Below are positions 12,800 through 23,150 of a stretch of 24,747 nt of DNA, piece after piece. The notes under the pieces are model-generated. The model searched no databases, was not told the origin of the DNA, and worked only from the letters and a program-made list of their open reading frames with translations. This DNA comes from Chloroflexota bacterium (lineage in GTDB: Bacteria > Chloroflexota > Ktedonobacteria > Ktedonobacterales > Ktedonobacteraceae). Each line of letters starts with the position of its first letter. Positions within the stretch are counted from its first letter, which is position 1. The stretch lies in assembly GCA_046726675.1 (NCBI GenBank), contig JBKPBA010000498.1:1-24747 (forward strand), in the 5' to 3' direction. Made by a program: the position numbers and the translations under genes.

Positions 12800-12811
12800 G
12801 AGAGTGTGATT

Positions 12812-13687
12812 ATGGCGAGAACTATTGTGCAGGTGAATGGTATAAGGCTTGGAGTTGAACAGCGCGGTGTAGGGGCTCGATTTATCGAGCCCCAAAACGG
12901 CCAAGAGATACCTCATACGCTCGTTTTGTTGCATGGCTTTACAGGAAGTGCGGCTGGTTGGGGACATCTGTTAGATATACTGGCTGACTATGGTTTGCGC
13001 ATAATCGCCATTGATCTGCCTGGCCATGGACAATCCGATGCTCCAGATGATCCACAGCGTTACGCAATCGAGCGCTGCCAACAAGATATCCTGGCAGCAT
13101 TACAAGAGTTGGGTGTAAGCAAGGGTCAGGCTATCATCCTTGGCTATTCGATGGGTGGACGTATAGCGCTCTACACAGTATTCTCAGGATTCTTTCGTGC
13201 CCTCATCCTGGAAAGCTCTTCGCCTGGATTGGAAAACCCTGCTGAACGCGAACAGCGACGCGTCAACGACGAAGCGCTGGCTGCAAGCATCGAGCGCGAA
13301 GGAGTCCCAGCGTTCATCGAGCGTTGGGAAAATCTACCATTGTTTGCCAGCCAGAGGACACTAGCGTGTGAATGCAGGGAGGCGCTACATAGACAGCGCC
13401 TGCAAAATAGCGCTACGGGTCTGGCTCAGAGCTTGCGTGGCGTAGGTACAGGTGTCCAGCCATCCCTCTATACTCGACTGCCAACGCTGCATATACCTGT
13501 CCTGCTGATTGTTGGCGCACTCGATACAAAATTCACAGCGATTGCAAGACGCATGGCCCAGGCGCTACCGCAATCACAACTGCATATAGTACCTGCTGCT
13601 GGCCACACAGTTCATCTGGAACAGCCACAGCTATTCGCTTCCCTGGTAGGAGATTTCAGCTTAATATTGACCCGTCCTTTATCATGA
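12812..13687 (+). CDS. menH: SHCHC synthase (alpha/beta hydrolase)
   Basis: LHGFTGS, DLPGHG, GYSMGGRIAL, SPGL, FIERWENLPLF, GHTVHLEQP; located between menD and menB. Confidence 0.92.
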   Translation: MARTIVQVNGIRLGVEQRGVGARFIEPQNGQEIPHTLVLLHGFTGSAAGWGHLLDILADYGLRIIAIDLPGHGQSDAPDDPQRYAIERCQQDILAALQELGVSKGQAIILGYSMGGRIALYTVFSGFFRALILESSSPGLENPAEREQRRVNDEALAASIEREGVPAFIERWENLPLFASQRTLACECREALHRQRLQNSATGLAQSLRGVGTGVQPSLYTRLPTLHIPVLLIVGALDTKFTAIARRMAQALPQSQLHIVPAAGHTVHLEQPQLFASLVGDFSLILTRPLS

Positions 13688-13695
13688 GATTGAGC

Positions 13696-13785
13696 GGGGT
13701 TCAGGGGCAGCCGCCCCTGACGGGGTGTGGGGTGTCCCCACCACCTCTTTCTCCCCTCGCCGCCGTAGGCGCGAGCAAAGAAAAA
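13696..13785 (+). repeat. Multi-hairpin GC-rich intergenic element
   Basis: TCAGGGGC-AGCC-GCCCCTGA (13701-13720), GGGG...CCCC (13722-13739) and CTCGC-C-GCC-GTA-GGC-GCGAG (13756-13775) hairpins between menH and menB; only one copy in the window. Confidence 0.55.
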
Positions 13786-13825
13786 TTATGCAAATAGAGC
13801 ATAGCAAAAACAAAAGGAGAAATAC

Positions 13826-14644
13826 ATGCAAGTAGAATGGGAAAAAGTCCGCGATTATTCAGACATTATCTTTGAAAAAGCAGAAGGAATGGGAAAAATT
13901 ACCATCAATCGCCCCGAAGTACGGAACGCCTTCCGGCCAGAAACGCTCACAGAACTGATAGACGCCTTCAACACCTGTCGTGAAGACCCACAGATCGGCG
14001 TAGTCATCCTCACAGGCGCAGGTGACAAGGCATTCTGCTCAGGCGGCGATCAGCGCATTCGAGGACACGGAGGCTACGTCGGCAGCGATGGTGTACCTCG
14101 TTTGAACGCCCTCGACTTACAGAAGGTTATTAAGTACCTTCCCAAACCAGTCATCGCTATGGTTGCAGGCTATGCTATTGGAGGCGGGCACGTGCTACAC
14201 TTGCTCTGTGATCTGACCATCGCCGCTGACAATGCTCGGTTCGGACAGACTGGTCCCAAAGTTGGCAGTTTTGATGCAGGCTGGGGAGCTACATATATGG
14301 CACGTGTCGTCGGTCACAAAAAAGCCCGTGAGATTTGGTATCTCTGCAGGCAATACTCTGCCCAGGAGGCGCTGGATATGGGACTGGTAAACACCGTGGT
14401 GCCTTTGGAACGCCTGGAAGAAGAGACAATACAATGGGCACAGGAGATACTGGAGAAAAGCCCACTTGCCCTGCGCTTCCTCAAAGCTGCTTTCAATGCT
14501 GATACCGATGGCCTGGCGGGTATTCAAGAGCTGGCTGGTGATGCAACGATGCTCTATTACATGACTGAAGAGGGTCAGGAGGGGAGAAATGCCTTCCTAG
14601 AGAAGCGCAAGCCCGATTTCTCCAGGTTCCCGCGTTTGCCATAG
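13826..14644 (+). CDS. menB: 1,4-dihydroxy-2-naphthoyl-CoA synthase
   Basis: [64 protein letters not shown]; AAAGGAG upstream. Confidence 0.98.
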
Positions 14645-14678
14645 TAGTCCGTCAAGCTACATGTGGTGGTTGGGAACC

Positions 14679-14703
14679 TGGCACCCGCATGGGGTGCCAC
14701 TAC
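14679..14703 (-). repeat. GTAG-type REP-like palindrome
   Basis: Minus strand GTAG-TGGCACCCCATGCGGGTGCCA in the menB-menC gap. Confidence 0.7.
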
Positions 14704-14726
14704 ATTTCTGCCGATCAAACGAAGCT

Positions 14727-14735
14727 TGATACAAT
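14727..14735 (+). promoter_or_regulatory. Candidate extended -10 internal promoter upstream of menC
   Basis: TG-A-TACAAT 18 nt before the menC ATG; no clear -35. Confidence 0.35.
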
Positions 14736-14753
14736 GGTAGGTACACCAACCGT

Positions 14754-15872
14754 ATGAAAATCATTGATCTTCAGTGGCATATTTATCGCCTGCCATTCCT
14801 CCACAAGTTCAATACCGCTCATGGTGAAATGGACACCCGTGAGGGAATCATTGTACAGGTGACTACCAATGAGGGAATCTCAGGTATTGGAGAGATAGCT
14901 CCGCTCCCAACTTTCATTGGGGGCAGCCTTGCTGATGCCTGTTCACTCCTTCCAATACTGGCTGGTCGCCTCCGCCATAAAACACTTCGCGAAGCGTTGG
15001 AGCTCCTCGCCGCAGAGAAGGTACATCCATAGACCGCCTCTACACTTTGCGGATTGGAAATTGCTCTGCTTGATGCGCTAGGCAAAGCAACAAATTGCTG
15101 TGTCTCAACACTGCTCTCACCGGCCGATTTTGCACCACGAGCAGCCGTGCCGGTCAATGCAGTTATCAGCGCTAAAGCAACGAAAGAAGCAGCCGAGACC
15201 GCACTAAACGCCAAAAAGAACGGCTTTCTCTGTGTAAAGCTAAAAGTTGGCCTGGGATTCAGCGCCCACGAAGAGTTAGAGCGTATAGCGGCGGTGCGTG
15301 ATGCCATCGGACCAACACTGCATCTCCGCCTGGATGCGAATGAGGCCTGGCAGCTTGAGGAGGCAATCGCTATCCTCTCTCAATGTGTGGCATACGACAT
15401 TCAGTATGTCGAACAGCCCCTCAAGGCACATGACCTTGTGGGAATGCGTACACTTCGTCAGGCCATACCTATTCCGATTGCAGTTGACGAAGCAGTACAC
15501 AGCCTTGAGAGCGCCTATCGTATCCTCGATAGCGAGGTAGCTGATATCCTTGTAATCAAGCCTCAATTTGCTGGGGGTCTACGTATTGGACAGCAGATGA
15601 TTAAGGCAGCATCAGAGAGAGGAGTAAGCAGTGTCATTACAAGTACAATCGAAGCGGGCATTGGTTTGGTAGCCGAGTTGCACCTCGCCGCTGCATCACC
15701 TGCTGTAACGCTTGAATGTGGCCTTGCAACGCTTCCCCTATTGGCTGACGATCTTCTCACTGAAGAGTTGCTCGTTCACGATGGTTTCCTGGCAGTTCCA
15801 ACTGGCCCTGGCTTAGGCGTTGAACTGGACAGGCAAGCATTAGACAGGTATTTGAGAAGAGGTTTTGATTGA
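14754..15872 (+). pseudogene. menC: o-succinylbenzoate synthase interrupted by one in-frame TAG (15030-15032)
   Basis: ORFs 14754-15032 and 15054-15872 are in the same frame and read continuously (KVHP*TASTLCGLEIALLDALG); capping domain plus barrel with KLKVG, LRLDANEAW, YVEQP, IAVDEA, IKP intact. Pseudogene status uncertain. Confidence 0.75.
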
Positions 15873-17404
15873 ATACATCCGACATCTTTCTACCCAATTG
15901 GCTGACACGTTGCACCGAAAATCACCCGGAGCGCAACGCAGTGCAATGCGACCAGGTGCAATGGAGCTTTGCGGAGCTTGATTGTCAAGCATCCAGGATT
16001 GCACGACAGCTTGCTACTTTAGGTATACAGGAGGGTAGTCGTATTGCCCTGCTGGCCGCGAATGGCCTACCCTACGTCGCATTTGTACACGCACTGGCAC
16101 GTCTTGGAGCTATCCTTGTGCCTCTTAATGTTCGCTTGACGCTGCAAGAGCTATACTGGCAGCTTCGTGATGTGCGTGCATCGCTACTCGTCTGTGATGC
16201 AGACTATGCAAGCCTGGCACAGGAGATTATAGGAATGGTTCCACAACTCCCTCTTGCTACCTTGGTCACCATTTCTAGAAGTGGCGAAACGGTGATAAGC
16301 GATCTTCAGGAAGACGATGTTCCTCTGCGCACCCTCATTGATCTCAAAAAGCCACAGGCCATTATCTACACATCTGGTACTACTGGTCAGCCGAAAGGCG
16401 CGATCATTACATATGGCATGCAATGGTGGAATGCCATAGGATCAGCGCTCAATCTCGGGCATAGTCCCGACGATCGCTGGCTCGCTTGTCTGCCATTCTT
16501 CCACATTGGTGGCCTCTCCATTCTGATGCGCAGCGTCATCTATGGTAACAGCGTAATGGTACACAAAAAATTTGATCCCGCGATCATCAATCAAGCCATA
16601 TTGGAGGATAAAATAACCATTATCTCTGTAGTCGCTGTGATGCTACAACGTATGCTCAATGACCTTGATAGCAAAGCAGCCAATTATCCCTCAACGTTGC
16701 ATTGTATATTACTCGGTGGGGGTACCGCTCCATATCCTCTCCTTGAAGCATGTATACTTCGTAACGTTCCAGTCGTTCAGACGTATGGTCTAACCGAAGC
16801 CTGTTCGCAAGCTGTGACTCTTTCCCCAGCAGATGCAATACGCAAGATCGGTTCTGCAGGGCGTCCACTCCTTCCAGTCCAGCTACGCATTATGAATGAT
16901 GATAAGCCAGCCTTGCCTGACGAGCATGGTGAGATTTTTCTCAAAGGGCCAACTATCACCCCGGGCTATATAGACAGACCGGAGGCAACATCTCAGGCTT
17001 TTCAAGACGGCTGGTTCGCCACAGGCGACATCGGTTATCTTGATGACGATGGATACCTCTATGTACTCGACCGCAGAGCTGACCTTATTATTTCCGGTGG
17101 AGAAAACATATATCCTGCCGAGATTGAATCTGTCCTTCAATCTCATCCCTCCGTAGAAGAAGCAGGCGTCTGTGGACAAGCAGACCCACAATGGGGTCAG
17201 GTACCCATTGCCTTTGTCGTACTCAAATCCGATAGCTCTGTCAATGTCGAAGAGTTGCTAAGCTATACAGCACAAAAACTGGCTGGTTATAAACAACCCA
17301 GAGCCATCTACTTTACCGAACAGTTACCACATACATCATCAGGAAAACTTGTACGCCGCGAACTATCTCGATTGCTTCAAACCGGGCACAAGAGAACAGA
17401 GTAA
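15869..17404 (+). CDS. menE: o-succinylbenzoate--CoA ligase
   Basis: TTG start overlapping the menC TGA; YTSGTTGQPKG, LPFFHIGGL, TYGLTE, TGDIG, RADLIISGGENIYPAEIE. Confidence 0.93.
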   Translation: MNTSDIFLPNWLTRCTENHPERNAVQCDQVQWSFAELDCQASRIARQLATLGIQEGSRIALLAANGLPYVAFVHALARLGAILVPLNVRLTLQELYWQLRDVRASLLVCDADYASLAQEIIGMVPQLPLATLVTISRSGETVISDLQEDDVPLRTLIDLKKPQAIIYTSGTTGQPKGAIITYGMQWWNAIGSALNLGHSPDDRWLACLPFFHIGGLSILMRSVIYGNSVMVHKKFDPAIINQAILEDKITIISVVAVMLQRMLNDLDSKAANYPSTLHCILLGGGTAPYPLLEACILRNVPVVQTYGLTEACSQAVTLSPADAIRKIGSAGRPLLPVQLRIMNDDKPALPDEHGEIFLKGPTITPGYIDRPEATSQAFQDGWFATGDIGYLDDDGYLYVLDRRADLIISGGENIYPAEIESVLQSHPSVEEAGVCGQADPQWGQVPIAFVVLKSDSSVNVEELLSYTAQKLAGYKQPRAIYFTEQLPHTSSGKLVRRELSRLLQTGHKRTE

Positions 17405-17442: not shown

Positions 17443-17946
17443 CTATTCAACTGGTCTCTCGCTACTCAGCCGAATTACCTCTCCATTAACACGCAGTGTC
17501 GCATCCCAGGTAACCGTAATAGCATCCTTGACGCTCTGGTGGGCTGGGCAACCTTCCGGGTGTACATGAAGTGCGCGTTCGGCCGCAGTACGTGACTCTG
17601 CTGGGATCGCCAAATCGTAATGGACAGTAATCGACTCGATACGGATCGTTTTGCCAATACCAACAATCCGACCATCGACGGTGGCGGTATAGAGTTGACG
17701 ATCAAAAGGAATTTTGCGCCCTGACAGGGCACCGGCAAGAGTGCCGTACATTCAACCTGCAACGGCGGCGACAATGTGATCTAATGTAGAGGCAATTGCA
17801 GGGCCCTCTTTGGCCCCATAATACTCACGCAATTTCCCCTGTACACCATAAACTACGGGAGTCTCGACTTCCCCGAGATAGGCATTGCGATAGCCCTCCT
17901 TATAAATCAGGCGCGCATGGGAAATGTACTCAAAGGGTTCTGCCAT
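17443..17946 (-). CDS. OsmC-like protein with in-frame TGA, probable selenoprotein (167 aa)
   Basis: ORFs 17752-17946 and 17443-17751 are in frame and separated only by TGA: HIVAAVAG-U-MYGTL...HPEGCPAHQSV; GAAAGGAGG only before the first ATG; hairpin after the TGA. Confidence 0.8.
17714..17738 (-). promoter_or_regulatory. Candidate bacterial SECIS hairpin
   Basis: Minus strand UUGC-CGGU-GCCCU-GUC-AGGGC-GCAA; apical loop starts 26 nt after the UGA and begins with G. Confidence 0.5.
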
Positions 17947-17985
17947 CGTGCTCTTCCTCCTTTCAAAATATGATGCAGGCGATTT

Positions 17986-18675
17986 CTATACCTGCCGTTT
18001 TGATTTACTCCGCTGCTCAGTTACAGACTTACCCAGTGCAAAGTCGAGGAACTGGTTCCAGAACGGGATGGAACTACTGATAAAGATGATACAACCGACA
18101 AAGGCAACCAACGCGACGATAAGCGGCACTTGCTCGAGCCGTAGTACATCATAAAGCGCCCACGCCAAAAGACTCAGTAGTGCAAGGATCACAACAAGCA
18201 CACCGCGAAATCGATCATAGAATGCCAGTCGATTTTGAACAATCCTATTCTCTTCGGCATGCTTGCGCACCTGTGCGTTTTGTAGGAACCATGCTGCGAT
18301 GCCCACCAGATAGCACCCGGCGTAAGCAAGGTGCCATCCACGGACATTGCCATAGACGAAGTGAACGAGGAAGAGTTCAGTCGCGACGAAGGCAAAAGGG
18401 ACAATCGAATCGAGCAAGGTCGGAAGCCAAACATATGCCAGTACCATCATCAAGTACTCGTGCCAGATATCCAGGATGACTAAGAAAGTAGTGATGGTTA
18501 GAAGCCAAGCGACCGTATTGAAGCCTGGATATGTGGATTCGACGCGTATTACCAAAGTCGAAAGAGCAACACCCTGGATGATGCTCGCCAACGTCAGGTA
18601 GGCCGGGGCGAACTGGCTTTTGATGCGTTGAGCAATGTTGTCGCTCTCGATGTCTTCAAGTGTTGTCTTATTCAT
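17986..18675 (-). CDS. Hypothetical polytopic membrane protein (about 6 TM)
   Basis: Repeated hydrophobic helices; ATG 18675 preceded by GGAGG; ends 39 bp upstream of the OsmC-like gene. Confidence 0.7.
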   Translation of the reverse strand: MNKTTLEDIESDNIAQRIKSQFAPAYLTLASIIQGVALSTLVIRVESTYPGFNTVAWLLTITTFLVILDIWHEYLMMVLAYVWLPTLLDSIVPFAFVATELFLVHFVYGNVRGWHLAYAGCYLVGIAAWFLQNAQVRKHAEENRIVQNRLAFYDRFRGVLVVILALLSLLAWALYDVLRLEQVPLIVALVAFVGCIIFISSSIPFWNQFLDFALGKSVTEQRSKSKRQV

Positions 18676-18931
18676 AGTGAAGCCTCCAGTGAACGCTGTC
18701 ATCGGGTTGAGCGTATTTCTCCAGATAATATATTACCACGCTCCTCATTGCCGTGAGTCACCTTTGTGGACACCCTTGAAAATTCAGTCAACAGGCTCAA
18801 GCTGTGCTATCATACATACAGGAGGCATGTACTCATTCAATGAGAGATGGGAAAGCACGCCAAATTATTATTTTTAGATGAATGGTCTGTATGACCATCC
18901 ACAAGACGAAAAAGGAGCCAGCAATAAGCAT

Positions 18932-20054: not shown

Positions 20055-20993
20055 TCATGTCCTCAGTAAAGTAGAACTCAACACATACCCAACAACCTCA
20101 TACCCCCTGCCCAACTTCCCCTGCCCAGGCAAATCAGTAATCCATTCCCAGTGACGCTCTTCTATTACATTGAAACTCTCTCGCACCAGTTCAGGCAACG
20201 AGCGTGGAACAATTGGCAAAGTCCGACGACGGTGCGTATCATTCTCAGTGCCGAAAACTTCAAACACAAAGCCCCGTACATCACTGAGCAACACAACGAT
20301 CCCTCCCACATCAAGCAGTTCGTGTAACAGGTGTAAGTGTCCCTGAATGATACGTATGCGAAAGTTTTGTGCTGCCTCCTGGTAGCGGTGATGGCGTTCC
20401 TGCTCACCCAGATAGGCGGGCGCAATGTGTTGTACATGATCAAGCATATCCAATAGAGGATAACTGAAGAGTTGTGAGAGCACTAGCGAACTGATGACCA
20501 CACCAAATTCACTTGTATGCAAACCCTCGATTTCAGGTGGGTCTGGTACGGGACATTGTTCTAAGCAGCGAGCAGCGGCATCGAAAATAACCTGAGCACC
20601 CTGAGATATAAGCTTATCCCAGGGCTGCTGTTCGATCAGGCGGTTCAGGTTGGCGCTTACTCCGCCGCTAATATCACAACATAGTAATCGTATCCTTTTA
20701 CGTAGCGCAGGAGAAGTTAGCTCGTTCCACCCTTGTTGCATCGATGCATGATCATAATCAGCGAGCACGACCTCGTCAGAATCACGAGCGAGTTCAGCAA
20801 GAGGAATTTCGGTACAGGCCCCTGCGCCCAACACAAGTGTGCTGTTTGAAGCGCTCCGTAGACGTTCCTGGAGTCCCTGGAGCATAAGAGCTGTACATAG
20901 TTGCAGGTGTTGAGGACTATGCTGGCGCAGCCACACTCGACGCTGCGCCCCCTGAGTCTGGATATTATTGTAGGTCAGGGTGTCAATGCGCAC
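20055..20993 (-). CDS. Hypothetical protein with class I SAM-methyltransferase-like motifs
   Basis: LVLGAGAC (motif I), VVLADYD, CCDIS; GTG start with GGAG, 3 bp after the upstream stop. Confidence 0.55.
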   Translation of the reverse strand: MRIDTLTYNNIQTQGAQRRVWLRQHSPQHLQLCTALMLQGLQERLRSASNSTLVLGAGACTEIPLAELARDSDEVVLADYDHASMQQGWNELTSPALRKRIRLLCCDISGGVSANLNRLIEQQPWDKLISQGAQVIFDAAARCLEQCPVPDPPEIEGLHTSEFGVVISSLVLSQLFSYPLLDMLDHVQHIAPAYLGEQERHHRYQEAAQNFRIRIIQGHLHLLHELLDVGGIVVLLSDVRGFVFEVFGTENDTHRRRTLPIVPRSLPELVRESFNVIEERHWEWITDLPGQGKLGRGYEVVGYVLSSTLLRT

Positions 20994-21874: not shown

Positions 21875-23150
21875 GTGACGACTCCCCACGGCTACAAGCC
21901 GGGGGCTTCTGGAATGACGCGGCCGTGTCGTCCCACGGCTTCTAACGCTTCGTCTAAGATATTCTTACTGCCATTGTGGTCTCGATCGATGACCAGACCA
22001 CAGCTGGGACACTCATACACCCGCGCTGAAAGGGGCATCTCTTGGCGATGTCCGCAGCCCGAACAGCTTTGCGACGTATAAGCCGGATTCACGCGCACCA
22101 CTTCTCGGCCAGCTTCCTCCGCTTTACTGAGCAGATGTGCGAAAAATGACGACCATGCCGCATCGGCGATACTCTTGGCCAATTTCGGGTTTTTGAGCAT
22201 GTTGCGCACCACCAGAGCTTCCACCGCAATGAACCCAAACCGTTTGATCAGAGAGACCACCTCTTGCCGGATGAAGTTTTCCCGCCGCCACCTGACCCGT
22301 TCATGCACGCGCGCCACCACCTTGCGCCGTTTTTCCCGTTGTGGTGTCCCCCTGTGCGTTTTGGAGAGCTTGCGATGGGCACGGGCTAATGCCTGTTCCT
22401 CCTTCCGGAAGAACCGCGGATTGTCGATCTGCCCTCCGATCGAGAGATAGGCAAACGTTTTCAGGCCGACATCGATACCGACCTGCGCATCTGATGGAGG
22501 CAAGGAATCAGCCTCCAGCTCATTTTCCGCGCTGATGCTCACAAACCATTTGCCTGTCGGCGTCCGTTTCCCCGTGGCCGTCTTGGGGATGCCGGTGAGC
22601 GGCCGATGCATCACCATCTTGATGTGACCAAGCTTGGAGAGGATGAGCGTGCCTTCCTGTTTCTTGCCAGCGTGGACGTCAAAGCTGTTGTGGTATTGCT
22701 TGAAGGTGAGGCTATTGTAGCGCCAGCTCGATCGGAAGCGTGGATAACCCGGCTGCTGTCCGTCCTTCACGCGCCGGAAAAAGCCGTCAAAGGCCCGATC
22801 CACCCGCTTGAGGACGTCTTGCAGGACTTGCGAGTTCACCTCGGCCAGTTCCGGGCGTACCTCTTTGCAAGCAGGCAGTTCAGCGCACTGCTGCGCGTAG
22901 CCAAGCGAGATGCCCGCCATGCGGTAGGCATCACGGCGTTCTTGCAACGCGGCGTTATAGGTCTCGCAGCAGAGAGCAAGCCACTTGTTCAGCGTGGTTT
23001 GTTGCTTTTTTGTCAGGTAGAGTCTGTACTGAAACGTCTTGTTCATCTCGCGGATACTTTCTTCTTGGGGCACGAGCAACCGGAAACAGTCCCTTCCCCG
23101 CCCCAAAAAGGAACGCGCCTTTCATCTCCATAACTGGAAGTCAGGGGCAT
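21875..23150 (-). mobile_element. Second tnpB-only IS200/IS605-family element
   Basis: Right end (minus strand) GAAGCCCCCGGCTTGTAGCCGTGGGGAGTCGTCAC ending 21875; left end ATGCCCCTGACTTCCAGTTATGGAGATGAAAGG directly after the holB stop; no tnpA. Left boundary approximate. Confidence 0.75.
21892..23046 (-). CDS. tnpB: RNA-guided endonuclease TnpB (384 aa)
   Basis: N-terminal HTH KTFQYRLY, VGIDVG, IAVEAL, CSGCG..CPSCG, DRDHNGSKNI; start moved to ATG 23046. Confidence 0.92.
   Translation of the reverse strand: MNKTFQYRLYLTKKQQTTLNKWLALCCETYNAALQERRDAYRMAGISLGYAQQCAELPACKEVRPELAEVNSQVLQDVLKRVDRAFDGFFRRVKDGQQPGYPRFRSSWRYNSLTFKQYHNSFDVHAGKKQEGTLILSKLGHIKMVMHRPLTGIPKTATGKRTPTGKWFVSISAENELEADSLPPSDAQVGIDVGLKTFAYLSIGGQIDNPRFFRKEEQALARAHRKLSKTHRGTPQREKRRKVVARVHERVRWRRENFIRQEVVSLIKRFGFIAVEALVVRNMLKNPKLAKSIADAAWSSFFAHLLSKAEEAGREVVRVNPAYTSQSCSGCGHRQEMPLSARVYECPSCGLVIDRDHNGSKNILDEALEAVGRHGRVIPEAPGL

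Follow-up and report, generated by a model that had tools for sequence, protein, structure and literature searches.

The window analysed here is the whole of a 24,747-nucleotide stretch of DNA (contig JBKPBA010000498.1, positions 1–24,747, assembly GCA_046726675.1) from a soil bacterium of the Ktedonobacteraceae, in the phylum Chloroflexota. On its minus strand lies a gene of the OsmC/Ohr superfamily in which a mid-gene 'stop' is almost certainly read as selenocysteine (Sec). We put the probability at roughly 88% that the locus is one gene of 167 residues, with UGA65 decoded as Sec through SelB and tRNA-Sec under the direction of a stem-loop downstream of the codon. For the Sec65 protein we infer selenium incorporation, a peroxidase activity, and the substrate and reductant that would go with it.

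The interrupted reading frame and the predicted fold

The predicted coding sequence spans 17443..17946 on the minus strand and is supported by its reading frame, a Pfam match, the predicted fold and the presence of orthologues. The frame runs from an ATG at 17946–17944 to a TAG at 17445–17443, and its sole interruption is a TGA at 17754–17752, which forms codon 65. In the ORF listing the same stretch appears as two abutting, same-frame ORFs on the minus strand, 17946..17752 (64 aa and the TGA) and 17751..17443 (102 aa and the TAG). Reading through the TGA gives a product of 64 residues, Sec and a further 102 residues, or 167 codons ahead of the TAG. A plus-strand reading of 17443–17946 was also considered and rejected; the frame on that strand is riddled with stops, and the gene is therefore assigned to the minus strand. 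The original prediction had the coordinates right and named no strand, and its fusion of two ORFs through one TGA into a 167-residue protein is borne out by the minus-strand frame.

Both of the motifs that it quoted, AAVAG-[TGA]-MYGT and GCPAHQS, are present in the translation. On read-through, Sec65 is embedded in HIVAAVAG-U65-MYGTLAGAL; its wider surroundings read LDHIVAAVAG-U-MYGTLAGALSGRK, and the peptide across the residue is VAAVAG-U-MYGTLAGALSGR. The second motif, HPEGC133PAHQS, belongs to the longer translated stretch HVHPEGCPAHQSV and includes, within GCPAH, the TGC codon of Cys133 (17548..17550, minus strand), the predicted resolving cysteine. A Shine–Dalgarno box, GGAGG, read from the sequence at 17956..17960 (minus strand), is positioned 9 nt 5′ of the ATG at 17946–17944, and purine-rich boxes precede the start in most of the orthologues inspected. 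The ATG immediately 3′ of the TGA (GCCGTTGCAGGTTGAATG) has no comparable box upstream, which agrees with the earlier statement that only the first ATG is so equipped.

The 167-residue product is an OsmC/Ohr-superfamily protein. Residues 55–147 match Pfam PF02566 (OsmC) with 36.4 bits against a gathering cut-off of 27.5 (E 7.5e-9). An AlphaFold2 model, calculated with 30 homologues as input, has a pLDDT of 96.1 and a pTM of 0.89 and contains a predicted continuous central helix, residues 54–76, that runs through residue 65. In a Foldseek comparison with the PDB, the top 50 matches are all OsmC, Ohr or related putative redox proteins at a probability of 1.00, and the best solved fold is Ta0195 (2onf; TM 0.71/0.83).

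When a homologue profile is aligned to the PDB, column 65 coincides with the first conserved Cys in 1ukk, 1qwi and 2onf; the segments of T. thermophilus and E. coli OsmC that align there read AAHAGCFSMAL and AAHAACFSMAL. Cys133, near-invariant in homologues, falls on the GCPV Cys of the T. thermophilus and E. coli OsmC structures (1ukk, 1qwi). This alignment places codon 65 and Cys133 just where the original prediction had put them, at the first catalytic Cys and at the second, C-P Cys. In OsmC and Ohr proteins the first Cys is peroxidatic and the second is resolving, and the active site of the homodimer includes a catalytic Arg, joined by a Glu in Ohr. Arg20 is invariant in the orthologues examined here and Asp56 is near-invariant in homologues; judged from sequence, these two residues are candidates for the active-site Arg/acid pair.

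Models of narrower groups fit the protein poorly. TIGR03562, which describes the OsmC subfamily, scores 12.1 bits against a cut-off of 85.8, and no Ohr model is listed at E ≤ 1. The curated NF041052 (OsmC_like_Se) reaches 23.2 bits against a cut-off of 95, over residues 55–155 only, and the protein is not a member of that family.

By analogy with OsmC and Ohr enzymes, Sec65 in the long central helix would occupy the first (peroxidatic) Cys position and Cys133 in the GCP motif the second (resolving) position. The Sec65 selenolate would attack a hydroperoxide (ROOH) to yield a selenenic acid, Cys133 would resolve this species to a selenenylsulfide, and a thiol (dithiol) reductant would then regenerate the enzyme. 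The recycling reductants of OsmC and Ohr proteins are lipoyl proteins or thioredoxin. The protein might instead be a selenoprotein with some other thiol/selenol redox or carrier role, of the YhfA/COG1765 or Ta0195 type, and not a hydroperoxide reductase. We rate such a role as somewhat unlikely yet deserving of real weight, because the closest solved match is the uncharacterised Ta0195 (2onf) and not OsmC or Ohr proper, and because the OsmC/Ohr subfamily models are not matched (about 12 bits against 85.8 for TIGR03562, and no Ohr match). It would also fit the lack of any conserved neighbour gene hinting at a pathway. Hydroperoxide reduction is favoured by the retention of both catalytic Cys positions of the OsmC/Ohr peroxidases and by the presence of Sec at the nucleophilic position, which is typical of peroxide-reducing selenoenzymes; moreover, we know of no alternative activity for the OsmC fold.

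Conservation of the UGA codon and of a hairpin 3′ to it

The in-frame UGA (17752..17754, minus strand), the predicted Sec codon at the first, peroxidatic-type Cys position, is strictly conserved among orthologues. The gene occurs in 10 of the 40 relatives searched, at 73–89% identity and each time with exactly one internal TGA; in all ten the TGA is codon 65 and lies inside an invariant AAVAG-U-MYGTLAGAL. Codon-aligned loci from species-representative genomes likewise have TGA at codon 65 in 43/43 cases, with hosts among the Ktedonobacteraceae/Ktedonobacterales, other Chloroflexota (including a Dehalococcoidia MAG) and Methylomirabilota/Rokubacteria. The two sets overlap in part. Across all 53 orthologue sequences read (10 + 43), a single TGA at the same codon is far beyond chance.

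Homologues with an uninterrupted frame supply the residue that Sec would replace. C65 and C133 are near-invariant (at least 90%) in 30 full-length homologues drawn from a 1.8-billion-protein library, and these homologues are uninterrupted polypeptides that read Cys-Met or Cys-Leu across the TGA junction. A 43%-identical paralogue in one relative (G021) has TGT in the TGA column; among the Cys forms, the paralogue L025 and L078 have TGT there. An alignment of homologues for Cys or TGA at this column had been proposed as a check on the original prediction, and its outcome is favourable. Dozens of library matches stop at query residue 64 or start at 66, the pattern left when gene callers cut TGA forms in two.

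Four full-length homologues (P0153, P0023, P0115 and P0117) carry Ser, Trp or Asp at the Sec/Cys column. The 'W' at column 65 of JGI proteins was considered as a Trp variant and rejected, since it is a TGA translated with another code (e.g. P0152); the Trp of P0023 may be another TGA read as W in the same manner.

Two accounts that do without recoding, either two separate small genes (64 and 102 aa) coupled through a UGA–AUG stop–start or a nonsense pseudogene, are in our view very improbable. A pair of genes would explain the ATG immediately after the TGA and the annotation of the 102-aa piece by itself in hundreds of records. It is opposed by the full-length homologues, in which a single chain reads Cys-Met or Cys-Leu at the junction, by the predicted helix 54–76, which crosses that junction in a fold that requires both halves, and by the second ATG, which is without a Shine–Dalgarno box. 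A pseudogene is opposed by the fixation of the TGA in over 50 genomes from two phyla and by purifying selection on both halves. Relative to the congener, dN/dS is 0.03 for the N-terminal half (codons 2–64) and 0.10 for the C-terminal half (codons 78–160), which indicates that both are maintained as coding sequence; dS is saturated against most other orthologues. The genome also contains a true pseudogene copy of the gene, and that one, unlike the copy analysed here, bears an additional TAA and is truncated.

A global reassignment of TGA, such as the Trp of code 4 or the Gly of code 25, would make residue 65 something other than Sec. JGI pipelines did translate two orthologous contigs with TGA as W, giving 'W' at column 65, but we find this explanation scarcely credible. 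TGA is the ordinary stop of 7 of the 19 long ORFs in the window and the gene's own terminator in two inspected orthologues. The selA, selD and other searched genes of the MAG have open frames under table 11 with no internal TGA, and homologues carry Cys at column 65, neither Trp nor Gly.

Decoding of UGA65 as Sec would involve an element in the mRNA, and a SECIS-like hairpin is found at 17716..17732 (minus strand) on the basis of folding, conservation and synonymous sites. It consists of a 7-bp stem (GUGCCCU / AGGGCGC) and a G-U-C loop. Stem and loop begin 19 and 26 nt 3′ of the UGA, respectively, and the element spans +22..+38; in E. coli fdhF the base of the SECIS hairpin is about 11 nt from the UGA. 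The SECIS check suggested with the original prediction has a favourable outcome, a SECIS-like, G-first hairpin 19 nt 3′ of the TGA. In the proposed mechanism, this mRNA stem-loop, 19–35 nt past the UGA, would direct bacterial SelB and tRNA-Sec to insert Sec65. An Rfam scan of the gene region at E ≤ 10 gave no SECIS or other credible family.

Folding of the 50 nt 3′ of the UGA (MFE −18.9 kcal/mol, z −2.66) predicts two small hairpins side by side. The first of these (CGGCA-CUCU-UGCCG; 17733..17746, minus strand), a competing or auxiliary hairpin, separates the UGA from the SECIS-like stem. Its loss in the Methylomirabilota orthologues, those whose sequences read CTGCGTGG, makes it unlikely to be the functional element.

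Across the alignment the SECIS-like stem reads G(U/C)GCCCU / AGGGCGC, with a G-(U/G)-C loop. The hairpin is kept in 38 of 41 aligned sequences, and 95.5% of cells are paired compared with 28–60% when the partner is slid. Every change seen in the stem keeps the pairing, namely C-G to U-G at one pair in 15 sequences and at another in 3, and no double compensatory changes occur in the 41 sequences. Because classical covariation is absent, the case for the hairpin rests on frozen synonymous sites, together with these one-sided pair-preserving changes. Over codons 67–77 the normalised synonymous entropy is 0.36, as against 0.79 elsewhere, and this is the minimum of the gene (Mann–Whitney p = 8e-5; 43 sequences). 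In the same set Leu74 is CTG in 43/43, Gly76 is GGG in 40/40, Arg77 is CGC in 40/43 and Ala73 is GCC in 38/43. The Cys forms L025 and L078, two controls only, have similar residues in this region encoded by different codons and keep 4–5 of the 7 pairs.

The most divergent Sec orthologues, L066–L068 from Chloroflexota and Dehalococcoidia MAGs (64–66% identity, 155 aa), are without the GCCCUG/CAGGGC hairpin. They contain another G-first hairpin (UGGCCGG-GGCA-CUGGCC-like) nearer the UGA, which suggests that the SECIS was replaced within the family.

Selenocysteine machinery and genomic setting

The source MAG comprises 3.78 Mb in 565 contigs, is 65.8% complete and has 24 assembled tRNA genes. Intact selA (463.6 bits) and selD (388.5 bits) genes are present in it; we know of no role for selA outside Sec synthesis. 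In searches of the MAG for selB, TIGR00475 picked up nothing beyond TypA-like and other GTPases, the SelB winged-helix domain PF09107 had no match, and tblastn with the congener's SelB returned just a weak TypA match. A tRNA-Sec was found neither among the 24 tRNAs reported by Aragorn nor with RF01852, which stayed below its gathering score. Given a MAG that is 65.8% complete with only 24 tRNA genes, the missing selB and tRNA-Sec amount to weak evidence against Sec decoding.

Relatives of this organism commonly possess both components. A selB gene scores above cut-off in 31 of 41 relatives, including all three congeners, and tRNA-Sec does so in 20 of 25, two of the three congeners among them. 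Among relatives that carry the OsmC-type gene, 8 of 10 have selB above cut-off, and the genomes of the other two are 82% and 69% complete. The tallies for gene presence and for selB include one unpublished genome (G022) that has selB and no orthologue. The original prediction had taken the gene to point to Sec machinery in this organism. That claim stands as regards selA and selD; searches of the MAG (65.8% complete) turned up neither selB nor tRNA-Sec, and congeners have both.

If selB and selC were truly absent, the gene could be ancestrally Sec-encoding and its UGA could here terminate translation or be read by near-cognate decoding at low efficiency. The searches of the MAG with family models, Aragorn and the congener's SelB fit such a scenario. 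We nevertheless judge it improbable, in view of the state of the assembly (65.8% complete, 565 contigs, 24 tRNA genes), the intact selA and selD, and the congeners, with selB in 3/3 and tRNA-Sec in 2/3. Failure to decode the codon is further opposed by the lack of gene decay, the dN/dS values of 0.03–0.10 and the intact hairpin, and insertion of Sec at UGA65 remains our preferred reading.

The assembled part of the genome yielded no further selenoprotein gene; the three molybdopterin-oxidoreductase genes found there have no in-frame TGA, and two of them begin at contig ends.

The selenoprotein gene appears to be a stand-alone unit, since no neighbour is conserved across loci. A 238-aa ORF (17986..18702, minus strand), with a hydrophobic-looking translation and without a Pfam match, terminates 39 nt 5′ of the selenoprotein start and is possibly co-transcribed with it; this ORF accompanies the gene in 0 of 54 other loci, the congener included. 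Conserved neighbours or operon partners are lacking across 44 loci, with an SDR linked only in the congener. A plus-strand cluster resembling menaquinone biosynthesis (12806–17404) converges on the gene and encodes an alpha/beta hydrolase (MenH-like), an enoyl-CoA hydratase (MenB-like), an MR_MLE C-terminal protein (MenC-like) and an AMP-binding protein (MenE-like). Also on the minus strand is a 312-aa ORF with no Pfam match (20055–20993); neither it nor menE is linked to the selenoprotein gene in other loci. A 404-aa TnpB-type ORF (21892–23106, minus strand) with HTH_OrfB_IS605, OrfB_IS605 and Cas12f1-like TNB domains marks an IS200/IS605-family element or a relative of RNA-guided nucleases. 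The promoter and terminator scan of the region was at shuffle level and uninformative.

Additional copies of the gene were observed in two genomes. The dead second copy in the genome studied here (locus L026, contig C488:1088-1333, minus strand) has about 80% DNA identity to the intact gene over its first ~245 nt, including the TGA and an intact SECIS-like hairpin. It contains a TAA at codon 16, and homology ends abruptly after codon ~82. The downstream sequence has broken frames in which IstB/IS21-helper-like motifs can be read (AAIDRVIHHCVILDI...ESYR), suggesting that an IS element cut the copy short. The cultured Ktedonobacteria bacterium brp13, whose genome is complete (AP024096.1), has two TGA-containing copies, L041 and L044, at ~7.643 and ~7.663 Mb. 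These lie about 20 kb apart and are near-identical, differing in one residue (R/H).

Annotation of the family and comparison with known systems

The split reading frame has shaped the public record of this family. There are about 2,100 database relatives, and among the best 120 nearly all are C-terminal fragments of 97–107 aa. Public records name these fragments 'hypothetical protein' or 'uncharacterized OsmC-like protein', and in the 1.8-billion-protein library the N-terminal pieces are called as separate entries. The expectation that the gene would be mis-annotated as two is matched by these records, which consist mostly of 98–102-aa C-terminal fragments with the N-terminal pieces called separately. 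A curated model of this widespread clade would mend hundreds of records and enlarge by one selenoprotein the selenoproteomes of Ktedonobacteria and Rokubacteria, which have been little studied. The gene would mean that aerobic soil Chloroflexota spend Sec on a redox enzyme of the OsmC type. Its hairpin offers a very well conserved SECIS example, useful for refining bacterial SECIS models.

No concept is changed by these observations, as the type of selenoprotein, the recoding mechanism and the logic of Sec/Cys replacement are all established. The earlier remark that OsmC-like selenoproteins are already known in prokaryotes is accurate: 'OsmC-like protein' was published in 2005 as a prokaryotic selenoprotein family from Sargasso Sea/marine metagenomes by Zhang, Fomenko and Gladyshev (PMC1088965), who assigned it to COG1765 with the motif UxxT. 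OsmC-like selenoproteins are listed in reviews from 2022 and 2026 (PMC9312934, PMC13188914), and NCBIfam holds the curated model NF041052, 'OsmC-related (seleno)protein'.

The present protein shares with the marine family (COG1765/PF02566) the fold, Sec in place of the first Cys, Cys-containing homologues and, directly after the UGA, a SECIS-like stem-loop whose small apical loop contains a G. It differs from the marine family and NF041052 in reading U-M-Y-G-T (UxxxT) rather than UxxT and in having an extra N-terminal beta region of about 50 residues. Its hosts are soil Chloroflexota and Methylomirabilota, not marine plankton. The NF041052 score (23.2 against 95 bits), the UxxxT motif, the N-terminal beta region and the hosts together set these proteins apart, at the sequence level, as a clade separate from NF041052 that would work like the known selenoprotein family. 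Whether they amount to a distinct and individually undescribed selenoprotein clade of the OsmC superfamily, found in soil Chloroflexota (mainly Ktedonobacteria) and Methylomirabilota and lying outside NF041052, we consider an even bet.

The SECIS hairpin is almost identical in nucleotides across both phyla, while synonymous sites elsewhere in the gene are saturated. If the clade is indeed distinct, this near-identity would suggest that gene and SECIS spread laterally together or that recognition by SelB is unusually strict. In a FastTree phylogeny of Sec and Cys forms, the Sec clades of Ktedonobacteria and Rokubacteria are neighbours with a few Cys forms interspersed. The tree, rough and midpoint-rooted, is only suggestive; P0016 (frame-shifted) and L065 and L070 (N-terminally cut) were excluded from it. 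For a distinct clade, the interspersed Cys forms would mean repeated exchange of Sec and Cys within it.

The OsmC/Ohr thiol peroxidases of solved structure (E. coli OsmC, 1qwi/1nye; T. thermophilus OsmC, 1ukk; Ohr, 1n2f/6eb4) have the same fold (Foldseek probability 1.00, TM 0.6–0.8), and both of their active-site Cys columns are shared, one in the long helix and one in G-C-P. The present protein differs from them in using Sec for the first Cys, in its low identity (11–20%) and in falling short of the subfamily models. Ta0195 of Thermoplasma acidophilum (2onf) is the best solved relative both by profile (E 6.8e-6) and by fold, and has a Cys at the same helix position and a C-x-x-T-like motif. 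It differs in having Cys and not Sec, in its length of 140 aa, in having no known function and in its second motif, which is KYCFISR and not GCP.

The hairpin resembles SECIS elements of the E. coli fdhF type, and with them the general bacterial SECIS stem-loop model (PMC1088965), in being a stem-loop within the coding sequence, 3′ of the UGA, with a small apical loop that starts with G(U). By analogy with these elements, it is presumably bound by SelB. It departs from the fdhF type in that the base of its stem is 19 nt from the UGA, in having no evident bulged U and in its unrelated sequence.
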